64,000 nucleotides of DNA from the IMG/VR virus record IMGVR_UViG_3300007609_000005, positions 32,001 through 96,000 of that record; one strand, given 5' to 3'. The notes under the pieces are model-generated. The model searched no databases. It was not told the origin of the DNA and worked only from the letters and a program-made list of their open reading frames with translations. The position numbers and the translations under genes were made by a program. Shown in pieces: positions 7,289 to 64,000 of this stretch (position 1 is its first letter; the number at the start of each line of letters is the position of its first letter). This DNA is from a virus.

Positions 7289-8968
7289 CTATACACACAA
7301 ATTATATTTTAACTTACCACAATCCCATATACGTTCAATTTTATTACTTTGCATATATGATTTTTCAGATTCTTTTTCGGAAATACTCTCTAATTTATCC
7401 CTTTGAAAACTTCTTTTATTGACCCTACTACCATTAACAATATATTTATAGTCCGGACCACTACTTTTCACCCTCTCAAATCCAAGTTTTTCATATAGAT
7501 TGCCTTCACTCCAACACCTATCTGCATAACTGATTATACGGGTTGCATTATATTCCCTTATAAACCATTTCAACAATTTCCCGGCACCACCAATAACATT
7601 CGTGTTCAATTTGTTACAGAACCTCGAAAGATTCCATTCACCATCATCCATCTTCACCCTCCCCTCGAATTTATTGAATGTCATTACTGCCACAAGTTCA
7701 TCATTGTATAAAAGACCAATATAAACAGAACTTCTATCATTCCCTTGTATATGATTTTCCTTTAAAAACTCAGAACACCGTCTAGTACTTAATTTAACAA
7801 CTTCACATTTCCGTGCCCCTATTTTCGTATCACTTATAGATAATATACTTGATATCTGACTCTTTATGATTGAACCTCTTTCAACCCAATCATCTTCCCA
7901 TATATGTATGATACGTATACCTTTATCATTGAAATATGATGTTTTATCAATGTGGTAGTTTTTATACTTATATTTCTCAGAATGCCAATAAAGCCCATTG
8001 AATTCAAAGCCTATTTTCAACTCCGGTAAGTAAATATCAATTTCCAAACCATCTCGATAAGACCTCACCACTTCACCATTATATATTGAATTGATGTATT
8101 CATATAACTCACCCTCCTTAATAGAAGTGGAATCCGATATTGGATTACAAACAGTACATAGGTTTACATTTGATTTTTTCCGATTATAGTACATATATGA
8201 TGATATCTCAAAATTATGATCACAACCTTTATCACAATTGAATTCTGAAATATTGTCACCAACATATCCAATGTAATTTTCATCATTTGATAAATGGACA
8301 CTATGACCTCTTATAGATTCAGAAGAATATGGCGAAGTTGAACCATATCTATCTAACATTGTTTTCTTAATTTTTTCTCTAACACCTGGGTCAGATAAAC
8401 TGGACCAATATCCCGTCTTATCATAATATGTTTTGGATATCCTATCATATATTTCTGGAACCTTTGATGGGTGATCCACCCCATACTTCTCCAAAAATGA
8501 ATTTCTTATCATTTCTTTATCATGGAATGGATTTTTAAATCCAAACTTCTCCATATTGGTTTTGGACTTACGTTCTTTATATTCATCCGTTTTAGAATAA
8601 TGATCCACCCCATATCTATCTAAGTTGGTTTCCTTAACTCGGTCTTTATATTGATTGGTCTTCGAATAATGATCCACCCCATATTTTTGAGAATTAGTTA
8701 CTTTATTCTTAACACTAGAACATTTAACACAAGTGTAAATAGGCAGTTCCTCACAAGAATTCACATTCTTGTTATAAGACTGATATGTTATGATATTCTC
8801 AGAAAAACAAACATCACAAGACACTTTAACCTTTTTATTACTCTTTTTCTGAAGATGTATAATATCAATATCTATCACATCGCCACATTCTATACCAACA
8901 TAATATTCACTGAAATGATCAATATTCCTCTTACTTATCTTAACCTTTATTGATTTATCTACTAACAT
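7289..8968 (-). CDS. Free-standing homing-endonuclease-like protein (Zn ribbon, KYGVDH repeats, PD-(D/E)XK/Vsr-like domain, C-terminal GNAT-like domain)
   Basis: Repeats KYGVDHYSK/RYGVDHYSK/KYGVDHPSK; EIDIYLPELKIGFEFNGLYWH; IHIWEDDW; ISYADRCWSEGNLY. Confidence 0.75.
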   Translation of the reverse strand: MLVDKSIKVKISKRNIDHFSEYYVGIECGDVIDIDIIHLQKKSNKKVKVSCDVCFSENIITYQSYNKNVNSCEELPIYTCVKCSSVKNKVTNSQKYGVDHYSKTNQYKDRVKETNLDRYGVDHYSKTDEYKERKSKTNMEKFGFKNPFHDKEMIRNSFLEKYGVDHPSKVPEIYDRISKTYYDKTGYWSSLSDPGVREKIKKTMLDRYGSTSPYSSESIRGHSVHLSNDENYIGYVGDNISEFNCDKGCDHNFEISSYMYYNRKKSNVNLCTVCNPISDSTSIKEGELYEYINSIYNGEVVRSYRDGLEIDIYLPELKIGFEFNGLYWHSEKYKYKNYHIDKTSYFNDKGIRIIHIWEDDWVERGSIIKSQISSILSISDTKIGARKCEVVKLSTRRCSEFLKENHIQGNDRSSVYIGLLYNDELVAVMTFNKFEGRVKMDDGEWNLSRFCNKLNTNVIGGAGKLLKWFIREYNATRIISYADRCWSEGNLYEKLGFERVKSSGPDYKYIVNGSRVNKRSFQRDKLESISEKESEKSYMQSNKIERIWDCGKLKYNLCV

Positions 8969-9036
8969 AACCTATATATTACAATTAAATTCTTCTTATT
9001 ATGGTAATTTTTTGTTGTTTGTTTAAAAAAAAGCAT

Positions 9037-9044
9037 TATCTTTG
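9037..9044 (+). promoter_or_regulatory. Bacteroidota housekeeping-sigma -7 element TAnnTTTG (representative)
   Basis: Same motif upstream of genes at 3338, 4757, 21283, 23459, 24907, 28570, 35575, 38889, 39244, 41431, 44217, 49348, 53324 and 63023 (minus). Confidence 0.75.
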
Positions 9045-9077
9045 TAAAACAAATCTTAAACATATAATAAAATTAAC

Positions 9078-10652
9078 ATGATTATAAACAAGAACATACA
9101 CGAAAAACTCCTTACGTCAATCCAAGAAATGTTGATCGATACGAAAGTTAATCTACCATACTATGGTGAATTTAACTTATTGGTGAACTTTCACGAGTCC
9201 AATAACCTTCCAACATGTGGTGTAAATGTTACATCAAAGGGGATGAACTTCTACTACAATCCGAAGTTCCTACAACACATGTCCCAAAAAGAAGTGAACT
9301 TCGTAACACTACACGAAGATTTCCACTTACTTTTCAATCACCCACGTAGAACAATCACGGGTCAATATAATCACAAATTGTCGAATATTGCACAAGATAT
9401 GATTATCAACTACATCATTTGGGACGATATCTCTCACAATTTTGTAGAAATTCCAAAGGATGAGAATGGTAAGAATATGGCACTGTTCCCACCAAAGGAA
9501 TACAAAGGTAAATTGATCTATGAAGAAGTCTATACTTGGTTGAAAGACGAAAAAGAAAAGTGGGACGAAGAACAGAAGAAAAACTCCGGTGATGGTGATT
9601 GCCAAACATGTAACGGCTCTGGTCAAAAACAAGACCAAAATGATCAAGGTCAAAGTGATGGTCAAGGTCAAGACCAAGGCCAAGGTCAAGGTGATGGTCA
9701 AGGTGATGGTCAAGGTGATGGAGAAGGTCAAGACCAAGGTCAAGGTCAAGGTGATGGTCAAGGTGATGGAGAAGGTCAAGGTCAAGGTGATGGTCAAGGT
9801 GATGGACACAATCACGGTCAATCAGGCGAACCTTGCCCAGATTGTAATGGCACGGGTAACCAAAATGGTATGGATTCATCTGGTAAGCCATCTTATGGTC
9901 CATATGGACAAAACCCATCCGGAGATGGTTCTATTGATACATGGTCAAAAGAACAGATCTTTAAGGACATGGATCAGAATGATGGACAATATATGGATTC
10001 CCACATCACCGATGATGTTCCTGAGGACATGAGAGAAACAATGGTACGAGATGCCATGGAAAGATTGGCTGCACGAGGACTTGCATCAGGTAATATTGAA
10101 ACAACTCTGAATAAACTTCAGAAGAAACGAAAAGATTACTTGAAAGAAATCAAACGTTCAATCTCAAATGAGATCTTCGGTACTAAAAAACAAAAGACTA
10201 TTACTCGAATCAATCGTAGAGGTATCAAAGGTCTTAAAGGTAACCGAAAGACCAAGACAACAATCAACGTTATTCTTGATACATCCGGTTCTATGGGTGG
10301 TCAAGGGACATTTGAAAGAGTTCTGTCGTATGTTTATAGGAACGACATTGAAATAAACTTCATCCAAGGTGATACTGATGTGAAGTGGGTTGAGAAGTTC
10401 AAGAAGAAACGTCAATTGGAAACAATGAAAATCCGAGGTCTTGGTGGCACTGTGCTCCAACCTAGCGTGGATTACTGTGTCGAACACTATAATGAGTACA
10501 ATACTTGTATACTTACGGATGGTTACACAGATACTCTTGACCTCTCTAAGTTGAATGGACGAGTTCTAATGATTTCTGTTGGTGTTGAAGTACCAACTAG
10601 CCGACCACCAAAGAAAGGTGTGAAGCAAATCGTACTTGAAGAAACTCACTAA
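9078..10652 (+). CDS. Metallopeptidase-like/VWA-domain protein (DUF2201 type), probable MoxR ATPase partner
   Basis: HEDFH (HExxH), MIDAS DTSGS, GGT and TDG motifs, Gly/Gln/Asp linker. Confidence 0.85.
   Translation: MIINKNIHEKLLTSIQEMLIDTKVNLPYYGEFNLLVNFHESNNLPTCGVNVTSKGMNFYYNPKFLQHMSQKEVNFVTLHEDFHLLFNHPRRTITGQYNHKLSNIAQDMIINYIIWDDISHNFVEIPKDENGKNMALFPPKEYKGKLIYEEVYTWLKDEKEKWDEEQKKNSGDGDCQTCNGSGQKQDQNDQGQSDGQGQDQGQGQGDGQGDGQGDGEGQDQGQGQGDGQGDGEGQGQGDGQGDGHNHGQSGEPCPDCNGTGNQNGMDSSGKPSYGPYGQNPSGDGSIDTWSKEQIFKDMDQNDGQYMDSHITDDVPEDMRETMVRDAMERLAARGLASGNIETTLNKLQKKRKDYLKEIKRSISNEIFGTKKQKTITRINRRGIKGLKGNRKTKTTINVILDTSGSMGGQGTFERVLSYVYRNDIEINFIQGDTDVKWVEKFKKKRQLETMKIRGLGGTVLQPSVDYCVEHYNEYNTCILTDGYTDTLDLSKLNGRVLMISVGVEVPTSRPPKKGVKQIVLEETH
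9645..9805 (+). repeat. Coding tandem repeat (GGTCAAGGTGAT-type units) encoding GQGD/GQGQ
   Basis: Visible imperfect 6/12-bp tandem repeats. Confidence 0.85.
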
Positions 10653-33739: not shown

Positions 33740-34681
33740 ATGAAACATTTAAAGAGCTTTTTTGAAAGTAGAATTGAACATTTATACCAACCATGTGGTA
33801 TATCTTGTGGGAACACTGTTCTCAAAATGTTATTGAATTTTTATGGAATATGTCCAGACACATCAATAGAAGAACTTATACGTATATGTGGCACAGACAA
33901 TAAAACTGGTACAACAGATAAGAAGTTAAAAGTTGGATTAGAATATGCTAACATACCACACGAACAAAATACAGTCATTGGAGAGGATTCTATAACTGAT
34001 CTCAAATCAAGATTAGGCAACGAACTATTCCTTATGAGAACTTTAACCAAAGGAATACCACATTGGATACTTGTATATCATTATGACGGTTCTATGTGGG
34101 ATGTTATGGACCCTTGGTTGGGTGAAATACAGTACAATGACCAAGAGATATTAGATATATGGGAACCAAGAAATTATGATGGGTTTTATGTACCAAGGAC
34201 ATTACCCCAATTGGAAAGATTTAATTTCTTTAATAAGAAAGAGAAATATCCAATTTCCCTTATTGGAAAAGAAGATATAGATGATGTTCTTGAATTGGCT
34301 GATAAAGTTTTTTGGGATTCCGGAATGGATAATAAGTTATATATCGGCTCAAATGCAGATTGGAGTATATCAGTTAAGATGGTGGATAGTGATCGAATAA
34401 TTGGGTTCTACATATTTAACAAAGAAGGATTACCATTCTCAAATGATAAATTCTCAGGTAAGGCAGTTCAGGGTGTTGCACTTGGAATAGATGAAGAATA
34501 TAAAGGGAAAGGACTTGGTAAGAAACTTATACAATATCCGTATGAGAATTTGGGAAACCAGTTCGATTATATATGGGGTATGCAACTTAAATCATTAAAG
34601 AACATCGATGATTGGTTGAAGAGAAGAGAAATTGTTGCAGATATGGGTGGTATGTACATAACTGCCGGATTATTAAACTAA
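33740..34681 (+). CDS. Peptidase C39-like domain fused to GNAT acetyltransferase
   Basis: Q...SCG, HW, DPW; YKGKGLGKKL acetyl-CoA motif A; starts MKHLKSFFE. Confidence 0.75.
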   Translation: MKHLKSFFESRIEHLYQPCGISCGNTVLKMLLNFYGICPDTSIEELIRICGTDNKTGTTDKKLKVGLEYANIPHEQNTVIGEDSITDLKSRLGNELFLMRTLTKGIPHWILVYHYDGSMWDVMDPWLGEIQYNDQEILDIWEPRNYDGFYVPRTLPQLERFNFFNKKEKYPISLIGKEDIDDVLELADKVFWDSGMDNKLYIGSNADWSISVKMVDSDRIIGFYIFNKEGLPFSNDKFSGKAVQGVALGIDEEYKGKGLGKKLIQYPYENLGNQFDYIWGMQLKSLKNIDDWLKRREIVADMGGMYITAGLLN

Positions 34682-35586: not shown

Positions 35587-35880
35587 ATGACTGAAAAGGA
35601 TGTTCAAAAACTAAATGAATTAGTAACTGATAGTTTCCATTTCCATTTACATAATACACATACCAAAAAATGGCTAATCATTATTCATAAAGAAAGCAAA
35701 ACAACATTATTTAAATTCGAAAGTCACACATTCACCCTAGAGAAATTAATGAAAACTCTTAGACAAAACATGAAAAGTAAGCATATATATGGGTCTAGTA
35801 GGAAATACCGAGAAGAATTATATAAACAACTCAAACATTATGACCGAAATAGAAAACTAAAAGAACTTCTTGATATATAA
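35587..35880 (+). CDS. Hypothetical protein with C-terminal motif
   Basis: Ends RNRKLKELLDI; TAnnTTTG at 35575. Confidence 0.7.
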   Translation: MTEKDVQKLNELVTDSFHFHLHNTHTKKWLIIIHKESKTTLFKFESHTFTLEKLMKTLRQNMKSKHIYGSSRKYREELYKQLKHYDRNRKLKELLDI

Positions 35881-35886
35881 AGAGTA

Positions 35887-35949
35887 ATGAATAATAAATC
35901 TGAAAATAACTTAGTGGTCGTCACTGATATCGTCAAGATGTTGGTGTAG
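35887..35949 (+). CDS. Val-rich attenuator leader peptide
   Basis: MNNKSENNLVVVTDIVKMLV*; five Val codons (GTG GTC GTC, GTC, GTG) directly upstream of valS. Confidence 0.75.
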   Translation: MNNKSENNLVVVTDIVKMLV

Positions 35950-36014
35950 ATAACTAATTCATTATATCCCAAGTGAATCCCAACATCTGAAACAGGTGTT
36001 GGGATTCTCCGTTT
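35936..36014 (+). promoter_or_regulatory. Attenuator terminator/antiterminator of valS
   Basis: 15-bp hairpin 35975-35989/35993-36007; AGATGTTGG (35936-35944) is complementary to CCAACATCT (35980-35988). Confidence 0.72.
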
Positions 36015-36037
36015 ACAAAAAATTAAAATCAAAAATT

Positions 36038-37366
36038 ATGAAAACTAAAAAATATTTAATAGATACTCCACCTGCAACAATTTCAGGTAAATTGCACATA
36101 GGACATCTGTTCTCTTATACACAGGCAGATATTATCGCCCGATACCATAGATACAAAGGCGATGAACTGATATATCCTTGGTGCTTCGATAACAATGGGT
36201 TACCTACATATAAATTGGCAAACAATCGAAAGATTAAAGGTCATGACAACATACTCAACTTCTCAATCGAACGTTCTAATGAGTACATAGACACATTCAA
36301 TAATGCAGGTATAGAGTTCGGAAATACCGAGTACCACACATTTTCTGAATCATCCATAGATATTGCATATAAGGCATTCGAGTTACTGAAGTCAAAGGGT
36401 ATAATCTATAAAAAGGAAACTGAATTCATGTGGTGTCCTAAACAAAAATGTTCCATATCACAATCTGAACTGGGTGATGATGGTAGAATAGAACGTAGTG
36501 GTGAATTTCCAGAGATAAAGACGGGGTGGGGCTGGTTCATAGACATCAAGAACCATATTCCACAGATAAAGGAAAAAATAGAGGAAATAGATTGGAAGCC
36601 TGAGAGGTTTAAACAGAATGCACTAAATTGGGCAGATAACATTGAATGGGATTGGTCCATATCAAGAGAACGGTATTATGGTATTCCGATACCAGGTGAA
36701 GAAAGAATGACATTTGACACTTGGTTCATCTCTTCCCTATCGCCACAACTGGCTTGGAACTCATATACGGGTGATACTAGCCTAGATATCCCTATATTTG
36801 ATATGAGATACCAAGGACATGATATTATTCGAACATGGGCTTTCTATACGATTGCAATGTCATATTTTTTAAACAATCAAATACCTTGGAAGACACTTAT
36901 GATAACAGGACATACACTTGATGGTAAGGGAGATAAGTTCTCCAAGTCATCTGGAAATGCCACTGATCCAAGACCATATATCGATAGACACAAACCATCA
37001 GGAATAAGATGGTGGGCATGTTCAACAACCTTGGGGAATGATATAAAACTAGATGAGCCAAAGATGAAAATGGGTTGGCGTATTGAGAACAAACTTCTAA
37101 ACGCCAAGAAATTCATAAAAATGCAAATAGATAATGAGTGGATAGGTGAAGATGAAAGCCTTATGACGGAATATTTAGACCATAAGGATCGGATACTTGA
37201 ACATTTCGAAAATTATGAACTGGATAAGGCAACTGATCACATATACACATTCTTTTGGAATATATTCTGTGATAAGTGGATAGAGGCATCCAAGAAAAAC
37301 CCAACTTCAATAACATTGAATAATATAATTACTGACTTCGAAAAAATAATGAATATCATATTATGA
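36038..37366 (+). CDS. valS: Minimal valyl-tRNA synthetase lacking CP1 editing domain
   Basis: DTPPATISGKLHIGH, WDWSISRERYYGIPIP, FDTWF, QGHDIIRTW, KFSKS; 442 aa. Confidence 0.88.
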   Translation: MKTKKYLIDTPPATISGKLHIGHLFSYTQADIIARYHRYKGDELIYPWCFDNNGLPTYKLANNRKIKGHDNILNFSIERSNEYIDTFNNAGIEFGNTEYHTFSESSIDIAYKAFELLKSKGIIYKKETEFMWCPKQKCSISQSELGDDGRIERSGEFPEIKTGWGWFIDIKNHIPQIKEKIEEIDWKPERFKQNALNWADNIEWDWSISRERYYGIPIPGEERMTFDTWFISSLSPQLAWNSYTGDTSLDIPIFDMRYQGHDIIRTWAFYTIAMSYFLNNQIPWKTLMITGHTLDGKGDKFSKSSGNATDPRPYIDRHKPSGIRWWACSTTLGNDIKLDEPKMKMGWRIENKLLNAKKFIKMQIDNEWIGEDESLMTEYLDHKDRILEHFENYELDKATDHIYTFFWNIFCDKWIEASKKNPTSITLNNIITDFEKIMNIIL

Positions 37367-37998
37367 GAAATAAAACATATTACCCAAATGATATGCTTGA
37401 TATAGTGGAATATGTCAAAGAAAACCCAAGTGATAAATCACCAGAAGAAATTTATAACGACTGGACAATTCATACTAATAATAAATTAACAGAACATGAA
37501 AGAGGAACACTAGGGGATATTAAAATATTCAGAGAAAAATTAAAAGGGGATTCAGAACTTGTTCTTTTTTGGGATGGTCGACAATCATCAAGAGTATTTG
37601 AACTCGCCCAAAATAAATATTTCAATGATACTAAATATTGGGATTTCAATCAAAATTCTTTTATACACGCATTCAGAATGGACATCAGTAATATAAATAG
37701 TCTATGGAGTCCATATAAGGATGATAAATATTTCCAATTTTATAAACACACATTCGATAATGGTAATGAGATGATATTATTGTTCGGTTCTTTATCACCC
37801 GAAGACGATTCTTATAAATATGATAAATATACACTCAGTGATGTTATACGAGAAGAGGGAATATCTAAATATATGACATTCATAGAATCATCATTGTCAA
37901 ATCCATGGCTTATGGTATTATTCAAGGATAATCCCGAATATGGATTTGAATATGAGAATGGTATTGAGGTAATAGAGAAAAGATTCTCCAAAAAATAA
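37363..37998 (+). CDS. Hypothetical protein
   Basis: 211 aa ORF. Confidence 0.7.
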   Translation: MRNKTYYPNDMLDIVEYVKENPSDKSPEEIYNDWTIHTNNKLTEHERGTLGDIKIFREKLKGDSELVLFWDGRQSSRVFELAQNKYFNDTKYWDFNQNSFIHAFRMDISNINSLWSPYKDDKYFQFYKHTFDNGNEMILLFGSLSPEDDSYKYDKYTLSDVIREEGISKYMTFIESSLSNPWLMVLFKDNPEYGFEYENGIEVIEKRFSKK

Positions 37999-41442: not shown

Positions 41443-42723
41443 ATGTCAAAGAATAAAAAGTATATTAATGTGATGTTCCCATACCCAAGTGGTTCAGGCC
41501 TTCACATCGGACATGTTTATAATTATGCAATAATGGATTCCTATTCCAGGTATTGGCGGTATAGAGGATATGATGTATTTCAACCATTCGGATTTGACTC
41601 ATTCGGACTTCCTGCCGAAAATTATGCCAAAAAAGTTGGAAGGAAGCCAAGTGAAGTCACATATGAGAATATTGAAAACTTCAGAAAACAAATGAGAGAC
41701 ATGAATACTGAATATACTGAGTTGCTAACGACTTCGGATGTTTCATATTATAAATGGACACAGTGGATATTCAGTAAGTTGAGAGAACATGGTTTGGCAT
41801 ACAAAAAAGATGGTGAAGTGAATTGGTGTACATCGTGTGAAACTGTCTTGGCAAGAGAACAAGTTAAAGATGGTGTGTGTAAAAGGTGTAGTTCTACCGT
41901 GGAAGAGAAGGTAATGAACCAATGGTATTTCAAGATAACCGATTACAAGGACAGGTTGATCAAAAATTTGGATCACATCGACTACCCACAATCAACTATC
42001 AATGCACAAAGAAATTGGTTGGAGAATTTGCACGATTGGTGTGTTTCAAGACAAAGAAGTTGGGGATGTCCAATTCCCGTTGAAAATGAAACAGACACAT
42101 TGGATACATTTGTCGATTCATCTTTCTATTTTGTTCGATATTGTGACCCATTCAATGATGAAGAATTGTGTTCAAGAGATAAATACCAACAAGTCGATAT
42201 GTATGTTGGTGGAAGTGAACACGCCTGTATGCACTTGATATATGCCAGGTTCATTCATATGTTCTTGTACGATATTGGTGTTGTCCCGGTCGAAGAACCA
42301 TTCAAAAGTGTAAGACACCAAGGTATGATATTGAATGATGGTGAAAAGATGTCAAAGTCAAAAGGAAATACAATAAATCCCGATGATTACGACCCAGATG
42401 AGTTGAGAATGTACTTGATGTTCATTGGCCACTATTTCGATGGTGGTTCGTGGTCAGATAAGAATATAAAGGGAATTAGACGATTCATCGGCAGGTTTAA
42501 GGAATGGATGTCGAGAGAAGGTGATCATGTTATTGACATCGAACCATTCAAAGAGAAAGTTTTCAATTATACGGAATCTTTCAAATTCAACAAAGTTGTT
42601 TCTGAGTATATGACATTGGTGAATAAGAATAGAAAATACAACATAACCCCTGAAGTTAAAAAAGAATTGACCAATATTTTGAAAATATATATCCCCGGTT
42701 TAGAATTGGGTGATGGTGATTAA
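41443..42723 (+). CDS. leuS: Minimal leucyl-tRNA synthetase lacking CP1 editing domain
   Basis: MFPYPSGSGLHIGH, GFDSFGLPAEN, DWCVSRQRSWGCPIP, DTFVDSS, YVGGSEHA, KMSKS; 426 aa. Confidence 0.92.
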   Translation: MSKNKKYINVMFPYPSGSGLHIGHVYNYAIMDSYSRYWRYRGYDVFQPFGFDSFGLPAENYAKKVGRKPSEVTYENIENFRKQMRDMNTEYTELLTTSDVSYYKWTQWIFSKLREHGLAYKKDGEVNWCTSCETVLAREQVKDGVCKRCSSTVEEKVMNQWYFKITDYKDRLIKNLDHIDYPQSTINAQRNWLENLHDWCVSRQRSWGCPIPVENETDTLDTFVDSSFYFVRYCDPFNDEELCSRDKYQQVDMYVGGSEHACMHLIYARFIHMFLYDIGVVPVEEPFKSVRHQGMILNDGEKMSKSKGNTINPDDYDPDELRMYLMFIGHYFDGGSWSDKNIKGIRRFIGRFKEWMSREGDHVIDIEPFKEKVFNYTESFKFNKVVSEYMTLVNKNRKYNITPEVKKELTNILKIYIPGLELGDGD

Positions 42724-63054: not shown

Positions 63055-64000
63055 CTATAATTCCAACATAAAAACACTCCCTTCTTCTTTGAATAAATAG
63101 TTCTGATATGCATCTTCTGCCAGAAATGGTGTCATTGGTGCTAAGACTCTCAACATCTTATCTACACAATTCTTCAAAACATATTGACAATTCCGCCTCT
63201 CATTACTATCAAGATCATATTCATATAGGAATGATTTTGTTGCATCGTCAAGGTAGAAACTCGACAACTCAGATACCCATGTAACCAATTCTCTTAGTAC
63301 GAATTTAAATTCATACTCTTCATAATATTTCATAGAATCAACATACATTTTATTTGTCATATCCAATACTTTCTTACCTCTATCAGATAAGTCGAGTGTA
63401 TGGTCAACATCATAGCCATACATATTACCTAATAAGTATTTCATTGTATTTCGTAACTTGAAGTAATAACTAGCACATGTCTTTAATACATCATCACCGA
63501 GTGTTACATCATTCCCATAACTTGTCTGCGCCACCCACAACCTCAACACATCAGTATTGAACTTATCTTGTACATCTTTTGGATCAACAACATTCTTCAT
63601 TGATTTACTCATCTTATGACCATTTTGATCAAGAACAAACCCATGTGTAAGAACCTTTTTATAAGGGGCTTTACCCATCGATGCAACAGATGTTAAGAGA
63701 GATGATTGGTACCACCCTCTGAACTGATCAGAGCCTTCGAGGTAGAGGTCTGAAACTTTACCATCCATAACAGACAACCAAGACGACCCAGAGTCAAACC
63801 ACACATCCAACGTATAAGTACATTTTTCCAACCCCATATTATGAAATTCAGTTGGTAGGAGTTCTTTATCTGTCATAGAAAACCACACATCTGAACCAAG
63901 TTCATTAAATAACTTATATAGATGTTTGTAAACTTTATCATCAGTGAATGGGTTTCCGTCTTTTAAGAAAACTGCCAACGGAAACCCCCATTGTCTTTGC
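63055..64000 (-). CDS. ileS: Isoleucyl-tRNA synthetase, C-terminal part (5' end outside window)
   Basis: QRQWGFP, LDVWFDSG, EGSDQFRGW, THGF, KMSKS, RNTMKYLLGN; ends without a C-terminal zinc finger. Confidence 0.92.
   Translation of the reverse strand, partial: QRQWGFPLAVFLKDGNPFTDDKVYKHLYKLFNELGSDVWFSMTDKELLPTEFHNMGLEKCTYTLDVWFDSGSSWLSVMDGKVSDLYLEGSDQFRGWYQSSLLTSVASMGKAPYKKVLTHGFVLDQNGHKMSKSMKNVVDPKDVQDKFNTDVLRLWVAQTSYGNDVTLGDDVLKTCASYYFKLRNTMKYLLGNMYGYDVDHTLDLSDRGKKVLDMTNKMYVDSMKYYEEYEFKFVLRELVTWVSELSSFYLDDATKSFLYEYDLDSNERRNCQYVLKNCVDKMLRVLAPMTPFLAEDAYQNYLFKEEGSVFMLEL

Follow-up and report, generated by a model that had tools for sequence, protein, structure and literature searches.

A 64,000-nucleotide stretch of viral DNA (the window; bases 32001-96000 of the 132,459-bp IMG/VR record IMGVR_UViG_3300007609_000005) encodes a valyl-tRNA synthetase (ValRS) of only 442 amino acids (aa) from which the CP1 editing domain is wholly absent, with the synthetic core otherwise intact, as in the leucyl enzyme of Mycoplasma mobile. 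The gene (36038..37366, plus strand) contains no valine codon and is preceded by a valine-rich leader open reading frame (ORF). In what we consider the likely reading, this mini-ValRS is an active enzyme that identifies tRNAVal by way of the acceptor end and the anticodon-binding helix bundle and cannot itself edit its product; stalling of ribosomes at Val codons would switch on its synthesis, for which Val-tRNAVal would not be required. Three independent arguments, all at the level of sequence, underlie the assignment to valine and to tRNA charging: the conservation of the valine pocket and of the helix bundle, the Val leader, and the purging of valine from the protein, which has converged in a second lineage.

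Results

Domain anatomy of the mini-ValRS

The open frame containing the gene spans 35996..37366, and initiation at the ATG at 36038, which gives the 442-aa product, agrees with the N-termini of homologues. When the protein is scored against synthetase profiles, ValRS models lead (PRK13208, 345.1 bits; TIGR00422, 249.1 bits; PRK05729, 185 bits), followed by those for IleRS (153 bits), MetRS (102 bits) and LeuRS (99 bits), every score being far short of the curated cut-off of its model. A first-pass annotation, made from the DNA alone, had described the product as a ValRS of archaeal-like type lacking both CP1 and the C-terminal tRNA-binding part. The type is supported by the lead of PRK13208 over the bacterial-type PRK05729, and the two absences are borne out by alignments to a solved ValRS, to PRK13208 and to full-length relatives. 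The strings quoted in that annotation are present and contiguous (WCPKQKCSISQSELGDDGRIERSGEFPEIKTGWGWF), as are DTPPATISG, QGHDIIRTW and the KFSKS version of the KMSKS motif at residues 300-304.

In the best solved relative, Thermus thermophilus ValRS (1gax, a ValRS-tRNAVal complex), residues 36-189, 378-414 and 448-656 correspond to residues 6-146, 183-220 and 221-421 of the mini-ValRS, and residues ~190-377, i.e., CP1, have no counterpart. Of the 801 positions of the PRK13208 model, the mini-ValRS covers 28-193, 344-411 and 457-664 and leaves 194-343 (CP1), 412-456 and 665-801 without a match. Its closest full-length relatives range over 775-910 aa, some of them labelled by their sources as Nanoarchaeota, Woesearchaeota, Absconditabacteria or Clostridia; those in our alignment (775-822 aa) are 31-38% identical to the mini-ValRS, and relative to them four segments have been cleanly deleted: an N-terminal extension of ~30 aa, CP1 (~150 aa), an insert of 40-45 aa, and the last ~135 aa. 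CP1 is replaced by D-G-R after QSELGD, at the junction G146-D-D-G-R150 (36473..36487; this and the following features are on the plus strand), and the profile of the CP1-type editing domain, PF13603, has zero match in the protein. The missing insert, which normally follows GIPIP and is Cys-rich in several full-length relatives, corresponds to the unmatched PRK13208 positions 412-456, and its junction is P219-G-E221 (36692..36700). At the other end, the protein stops at about position 664 of 801 in PRK13208, near residue 683 of 862 in 1gax, and the C-terminal tRNA-binding domain is missing; the anticodon-binding helix bundle (37181..37363; PF08264 positions 11-76 of 148, 31.7 bits against a cut-off of 25.1) ends at residue 442.

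The retained parts are strongly conserved. The protein matches PF00133 at E 8.3e-49, and a family alignment of 80 sequences, from which all residue counts are taken, has 28 invariant columns. In the HIGH motif (H20 I21 G22 H23; 36095..36106), H20 is present in 78 of the 80 members, and G22 and H23 in all of them. In the KFSKS loop (36935..36949), 77 members have K at residue 300 and the other 3 have R, K303 is invariant, S304 is found in 77, and position 301 varies. The helix-bundle motif FCDxWIE..K is near-invariant (W407 in 74, C411 in 78, I415 in 79, E416 and K419 in 80). Even the CP1 junction follows a conserved consensus, S-E-L-x-[DE]-x-G-x-I-E-R-[TS]-G, with G149 in 78 and E152 in 77 members. 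The cysteines flanking it (Cys133 and Cys138) are retained in just 39 and 26 of the 80, so a zinc knuckle at this site is not conserved.

Residues P11, P12, D51, W229, I263 and W267 align with 1gax P41, P42, D81, W456, I491 and W495, which we take to be the valine-pocket residues, and are kept in 78-80 of the 80 members. Because CP1 is gone, non-cognate products would not be removed, and the protein is itself strongly Ile-rich (53 of 442 residues), so one might suppose that specificity has shifted to a near-cognate amino acid (threonine, isoleucine or alpha-aminobutyrate) or to another tRNA. However, at the pocket positions diagnostic of ValRS the protein agrees with full-length ValRS, the codons that the leader would sense are those of valine, and the residue that the protein avoids is valine and no other; we therefore regard such a shift as very unlikely.

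An AlphaFold2 model computed from the family alignment (pLDDT 93.5, pTM 0.90) superimposes on 1gax chain A over 435 of its 442 residues (VIA-align Z 35.9, root-mean-square deviation 2.1 A), with model residues 1-442 equivalent to 1gax residues 31-683. With target normalization, Foldseek TM-scores lie at 0.64-0.75 against MetRS chains and at 0.66 against M. mobile LeuRS (3ZIU, 637 aa; PMC3643597); for the latter the query-normalized value is 0.84 and the VIA Z-score 32.3. Judged by this model, the size and architecture of the mini-ValRS equal those of MetRS and of the CP1-less M. mobile LeuRS.

Conservation and ancestry of the family

At E<=1e-5, 561 proteins (243-774 aa) match the mini-ValRS. 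Lengths in the best 120 clusters run from 387 to 534 aa, with nearly all at 423-460 aa, and identity to it from 47 to 78%, several of the clusters lying on contigs of 354-770 kb; an exhaustive, profile-free search recovered further mini clusters down to ~31% identity. The closest phage record is that of the uncultured phage LR745206.1 (complete, 634,780 bp), whose ortholog shares 65.8% identity with it along the full length. At the homologous loci that were compared at the DNA level, protein identity is 40-67%, a divergence that would leave synonymous sites saturated. At one locus (L033, 3001-4700), the mini-ValRS homologue runs over all three frames, either because the gene is broken or because of errors in sequencing, and the VVV leader and terminator persist upstream. 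The broken state of this related locus might suggest that the gene in the window is also a decaying remnant, or an artefact of assembly, but the frame is unbroken both in the window and among the relatives examined, the length is conserved, 28 alignment columns are invariant, and the fold is predicted with confidence, all of which render this explanation barely credible.

In a tree of 63 rows and 448 columns (IQ-TREE quick, LG+G4), all 23 mini forms constitute one clade (SH-aLRT 99), a topology that points to a single reduction event followed by long diversification. In six metagenomic ValRS of 570-673 aa (P0258, P0261, P0269, P0271, P0298 and P0347), CP1 is the sole missing part, the N-extension, insert and C-terminal domain all being in place; their branches are dispersed across the full-length ValRS of the tree, a distribution that forces at least three independent changes. 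One of them, P0298, lies on a contig of 548,986 bp, and a contig scan with this protein returned one relative and one short fragment. In the relative, the 627 matched query residues extend over 2340 nt, which makes it probable that CP1 is present there.

Absence of valine

If the composition of the mini-ValRS followed expectation, it would contain 25.1 valines, and it contains none (binomial, 5.8e-12). The depletion was recovered in a scan of all 20 amino acids across 79 ORFs of >=200 aa, without prior choice, in which the three strongest signals were the absence of Ile from the 738 residues of the IleRS (4e-26), of Val from the mini-ValRS, and of Asn from the 388 residues of an AsnRS (record positions 8951-10117; TIGR00457, 392.6 bits, above cut-off). 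A GlnRS encoded on the same record (958-2526; TIGR00440, 612 bits) has a single Gln in 522 aa. By comparison, 14-26 Val occur in the mini forms more distantly related to it, and full-length ValRS have a median Val content of 5.0% (120 full-length relatives).

Among the best 120 clusters of the family, valine is absent from 76, occurs one to three times in 30, and is found four or more times in 14. The homologous loci divide in a similar manner, with no Val at L006, L022-L025 and L029 and 19-22 Val at L026-L028, L030 and L031 (L033, where the gene is spread over several frames, was excluded). In the tree, read by eye, the Val-poor members form one clade within the Val-containing mini forms, and hence miniaturization probably preceded the purging of valine.

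A candidate valine attenuator

Upstream of the gene lies a leader ORF of 20 codons (MNNKSENNLVVVTDIVKMLV; 35887..35949, plus strand, ending in TAG at 35947-35949) with five Val codons, three of them consecutive (GTG GTC GTC, 35914-35922). Leaders with an ATG start and VVV occur at six of 13 homologous loci (the window, L006, L022, L024, L029 and L033); the leader of L025 reads V-I-V, and those of L026 and L028 are Val-rich, as read by eye. (L032 was omitted from this survey, its match beginning at base 3 of the locus.) As background, VVV is encoded by 19 of the 2983 small ATG-initiated ORFs of the 132-kb contig.

Seven nucleotides ahead of the leader ATG is a candidate promoter-like box (ATATATAA; 35873..35880, plus strand), read from the sequence and not flagged in a scan for sigma-70 consensus promoters. 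If it is a promoter, its spacing would make the leader ORF nearly leaderless; in L026 and L028, TATAAT stands at the same distance of 7 nt from the leader ATG. In these two relatives, which are of higher G+C content, a tRNA-like T-arm (GGTTCGAGTCC) occurs ~150-250 nt upstream of the mini-ValRS, just 5' of the TATAAT box and the Val-rich leaderless ORF, indicating a tRNA gene immediately ahead of the valS leader.

The leader region is predicted to fold more stably than its composition would lead one to expect (minimum free energy -45.2 kcal/mol, z -6.05), and none of 200 shuffled sequences was equally stable. In the minimum-free-energy fold, candidate segment 1 (CACTGATATC; 35922-35931) pairs with candidate segment 2 (GATGTTGGTG; 35937-35946), and a 15-bp hairpin (GAATCCCAACATCTG-AAA-CAGGTGTTGGGATTC; 35975..36007, plus strand), a candidate terminator or 3:4 structure, forms ~30 nt before the valS ATG. 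Segment 2 has an alternative partner, read from the sequence, in that the 3' end of the leader (GATGTTGG) could form 8 bp with CCAACATC (35981-35988), which lies in the 5' arm of the hairpin further downstream. Six relatives (L006, L022, L024, L025, L029 and L033) have a hairpin with a clear U-tract behind it, and in relatives segment 2 resembles the 3' arm of the terminator despite the differing sequences. Taken together, the pairings 1:2, 2:3 and 3:4 have the classical layout of a putative attenuator.

Ribosome-mediated attenuators are known for amino-acid operons and for pheST, and the region upstream of valS resembles them in having a leader rich in cognate codons and hairpins that are mutually exclusive.

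A second mini-ValRS in a cultured phage

The genome of the cultured Stenotrophomonas phage RAS14 (OP752703.1, 319,635 bp) encodes a 449-aa protein, WAX21612.1, annotated in GenBank as 'valyl-tRNA synthetase'. It is derived from the bacterial type, with PRK05729 matching in two stretches at 314 bits and PRK13208 at 173 bits, is only 25% identical to the mini-ValRS of the window, and likewise contains no Val. Since this enzyme descends from bacterial-type ValRS and the identity is so low, its reduction must have been independent, and the loss of CP1 and of the tail, with the purging of valine, thus occurred at least twice in jumbo phages. The RAS14 / CM1 enzyme thus shares with that of the window its domain losses, its size, its lack of valine and its carriage by a jumbo phage, and differs in its ancestry and in belonging to a phage that is cultured and therefore experimentally tractable. 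The first-pass annotation had proposed selection for the compact form, a view that gains support both from the conserved family and from this convergent case.

RAS14 also has an upstream ORF of six codons, MSPLNV (L036 1274-1390), which closes with GTA-TGA; its stop codon and the start codon (ATG) of the Val-free mini-ValRS overlap, an arrangement that may represent a different Val-dependent coupling device.

The neighboring LeuRS and IleRS

The mini-ValRS had been presented as one of a trio, with IleRS and LeuRS, that had undergone parallel trimming and loss of proofreading. All three are indeed trimmed. The LeuRS (41443..42723, plus strand; 426 aa, bacterial type) lacks CP1 as claimed: it has no match to PF13603, its best solved relative is M. 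mobile LeuRS (3ziu), and its junction reads NWLE-NLHDWCVSRQR. It scores 417.6 bits to TIGR00396 (cut-off 548.4), and its ortholog in LR745206.1 is intact at 422 aa. The mini-LeuRS contains 23 Leu, of which 19 are encoded by TTG, vs. 514 of 1991 Leu codons (26%) genome-wide.

The part of the claim that fails concerns IleRS. Its gene enters the window by its 3' part (ileS, 63055..64000, minus strand) and extends in full over G000 95055-97271 (738 aa, 0 Ile). When the N-terminal half was checked for loss of CP1, the domain proved to be retained, residues 6-726 aligning contiguously with 8c9e residues 7-771 and including the WTTQPWT and GTGLVHLCPAHG motifs. The enzyme is trimmed at the C-terminus, as had been stated, in that the alignment ends at residue 771 of 921 of 8c9e and ~150 aa are missing, a segment that is presumably the zinc-binding domain. 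Because IleRS is intact through CP1, parallel loss of proofreading in all three enzymes is wrong.

The CP1 of this IleRS is also the only one on the contig that was detected by either method: it holds the sole PF13603 match and the sole tblastn match below E 1e-4 when seven ValRS CP1 segments were compared with the 132-kb contig. A free-standing or split CP1 was absent both from this contig and from the complete LR745206.1, where the only PF13603 match is again inside IleRS. A split or trans-acting CP1 gene was thus rejected for these records.

Genome and host

The window has a G+C content of ~32% and is dense with small ORFs. Besides the synthetases, it encodes GyrB- and GyrA-type topoisomerases, a CCA-adding-type nucleotidyltransferase, DnaK, DnaJ, PRPP synthetase, and a protein with a T9SS sorting domain, the last of which hints at a Bacteroidota host. 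A 313-aa protein encoded at 33740-34681 has a C39-type peptidase domain (E 6.6e-06) and a weak GNAT match. According to an excerpt of Al-Shayeb 2020 (PMC7162821), genomes of >634 kb belong to the Mahaphage clade, with predicted Bacteroidetes hosts, and huge phages have up to 15 synthetases each, with domain loss going unmentioned in that excerpt. The carrier of the mini-ValRS is probably a Mahaphage-like huge phage that infects Bacteroidota.

The 132-kb contig, itself a fragment, has one tRNA gene, for tRNA-Met. LR745206.1 has 61 tRNA matches, among them tRNA-Val(TAC) and tRNA-Val(GAC), both with discriminator A and with CCA not encoded. Two odd tRNAs were reported by ARAGORN in LR745206.1, one (L017 865-938) with a four-base anticodon (gtag) and the other (L018 337-424) with a two-base anticodon (gt). 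The synthetases of this phage include the mini-ValRS, the mini-LeuRS, a 739-aa IleRS and the product of a MetRS-like gene. The last was considered as a second copy of ValRS, since it adjoins the mini-ValRS gene, and was rejected because the 457-aa PF00133 protein reads as MetRS-like (from its motifs only, by eye).

Discussion

The mechanism that we propose has two components. Having kept the Rossmann core, the valine pocket, the KMSKS loop and the helix bundle, and thus an architecture of the size of MetRS, the mini-ValRS would make Val-tRNAVal, and since CP1 has been lost, the enzyme itself would not proofread. Its substrate is probably tRNAVal encoded by the phage, and possibly also that of the host; the presence of a CCA-adding-type enzyme in the window, alongside the CCA-less tRNA-Val of LR745206.1, counts in favor of this reading. 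The second component is regulatory: ribosomes that stall in the VVV leader for want of Val-tRNAVal would shift the balance between the alternative hairpins, and thereby permit transcription or translation to proceed into valS. Because the enzyme contains no valine, it could be produced during exactly that shortage of Val-tRNAVal which induces it.

Several observations weigh against the reading of this protein as an active, shortage-induced ValRS. Its scores are far below the curated cut-offs of ValRS models (345.1 vs. 738 bits for PRK13208; 249.1 vs. 612.1 bits for TIGR00422), a shortfall that arises because ~45% of the PRK13208 model is missing. Mini forms outside the Val-poor clade hold 12-26 Val, and freedom from valine is therefore not universal to the mini form. 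A Val leader was not found at four of the 13 loci (L023, L027, L030 and L031). In the window, the tail of the hairpin (TCCGTTTAC) is a poor U-tract rather than a canonical one, and a terminator scan did not flag the 15-bp hairpin, because it is followed by no T-run. A tRNA search found no tRNA-Val on the 132-kb contig fragment. No RNA run was listed as containing positions 35850-37400, and the single DNA run listed may be the sample of origin. In addition, loss of the C-terminal tRNA-binding domain could severely weaken the binding of tRNA, and some natural class Ia paralogues with a disrupted CP1, e.g., LeuRS-I of Sulfolobaceae, bind tRNA and make the adenylate without aminoacylation, as stated in an excerpt of PMC9437257.

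The latter precedent, and the fact that two tRNA-contacting modules have been lost, raise the alternative that the mini-ValRS is a ValRS-derived paralogue that charges nothing, i.e., a maker of Val-AMP or a binder of tRNAVal that acts as a regulator, a decoy, or a donor for some non-ribosomal reaction. One such reaction might be a tRNA-dependent modification, of the kind that a 2026 paper (PMC13219725, excerpt) describes for phage DNA hypermodification. Under this alternative, however, it would be difficult to account for the invariance of the catalytic set, the KMSKS loop and the anticodon-bundle residues down to 31% identity, and a Val-stall leader together with total avoidance of valine would be sensible mainly for a product that makes good a lack of Val-tRNAVal. 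Moreover, MetRS functions with the same set of domains. The Tupanvirus mini-AlaRS, having lost its editing and C-terminal tRNA-binding domains, still charges tRNA and complements yeast, by the account in an excerpt of PMC10036535. On balance, we think a non-charging role unlikely.

With an active ValRS as the preferred reading, the absence of CP1 bears directly on fidelity. Threonine is isosteric with valine, and it is CP1 that normally clears the Thr product of ValRS. For this reason more Thr-for-Val errors would be expected, as the first-pass annotation had also anticipated. Such errors could be avoided if Thr-tRNAVal were hydrolysed in trans, either through resampling by the CP1 of the host's full-length ValRS or by an unrecognised phage factor; the mini-ValRS would then be active and the phage proteins not mistranslated, which makes this a variant of our reading and compatible with it. 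Resampling of mischarged tRNAs by synthetases is established in other systems, and the host presumably retains a full-length ValRS (PRK05729 exceeds its cut-off in ten of 14 control genomes, and PRK13208 in four of 14). If, however, failure of charging by the host is the reason for this module, editing by the host would have failed as well, and we consider restoration of fidelity in trans to be possible but rather improbable.

How does the mini-ValRS compare with systems that are already known? From the full-length PRK13208-type enzymes, including 1GAX, it has the catalytic core, the HIGH and KMSKS motifs, the valine-pocket residues and the helix-bundle motif, and it departs from them in lacking the N-extension, CP1, the 40-45-aa insert, the C-terminal ~135 aa and any valine. 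M. mobile LeuRS is also a class Ia enzyme without CP1, naturally so and, we assume, one that mistranslates; unlike the mini-ValRS, it charges another amino acid, is cellular, keeps C-terminal tRNA-binding parts and is ~200 aa longer, and we know of no cognate-free composition or leader switch in it. The Tupanvirus mini-AlaRS offers a precedent for active viral mini-synthetases, being virus-encoded and stripped of its editing and C-terminal tRNA-binding domains, but it belongs to class II, comes from a giant virus of eukaryotes, and is a lone instance rather than a large family.

Cognate bias in synthetases was reportedly noted by Seligmann in 2012. The bias is described for biosynthetic enzymes by Fasani and Savageau (PMC4209129, excerpt), and the mini-ValRS is like those enzymes in that the residue it avoids is the one that its activity would replenish. 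It differs from them, and from the attenuators of amino-acid operons and pheST, in that both devices are combined on a single phage synthetase gene, in that the depletion is total (0 of 442), and in the poor U-tract of the window. Huge-phage synthetases (PMC7162821), a CP1-less LeuRS in M. mobile, a viral mini-AlaRS (PMC10036535) and cognate bias (PMC4209129) are thus already known; a search of the literature, supplements not covered, found no description of a CP1-less ValRS or of a cognate-free phage synthetase.

A broader proposal, which we advance tentatively and with some doubt, is that the mini-ValRS belongs to a starvation-proof, proofreading-free kit with which huge phages decode valine: switched on by stalled Val codons, free of valine so as to need none of its own product and to escape its own Thr-for-Val errors, and pared down to a MetRS-like core by which no more than the acceptor end and the anticodon would be read. 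A design of this kind, in which a cognate-free synthetase is joined to a cognate leader, would extend to the IleRS, AsnRS and GlnRS of this phage, and for ValRS it would have arisen twice. If this proposal is true, then infection routinely involves a collapse of tRNA charging in the host, and phage proteomes either withstand the mistranslation of Val to Thr or have some buffer against it.

Several implications follow for the family as a whole. Because the proteins score far under curated ValRS cut-offs, annotation by such thresholds calls for caution. On the practical side, the enzyme could serve as a compact orthogonal ValRS scaffold, with RAS14 / CM1 as a cultured test system. Editing by ValRS is regarded as a universal safeguard against the misincorporation of threonine, and a conserved, twice-evolved family of CP1-less enzymes of ~440 aa, which would be the smallest natural ValRS, would provide a natural test of the degree to which a short-lived viral proteome needs proofreading. 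The valine-free composition and the Val leader provide evidence, at the level of sequence, of what the enzyme would be used for, namely, the restoration of scarce Val-tRNAVal, and the depletion of cognate residues in IleRS, AsnRS and GlnRS suggests that this may be a general design rule for phage synthetases.

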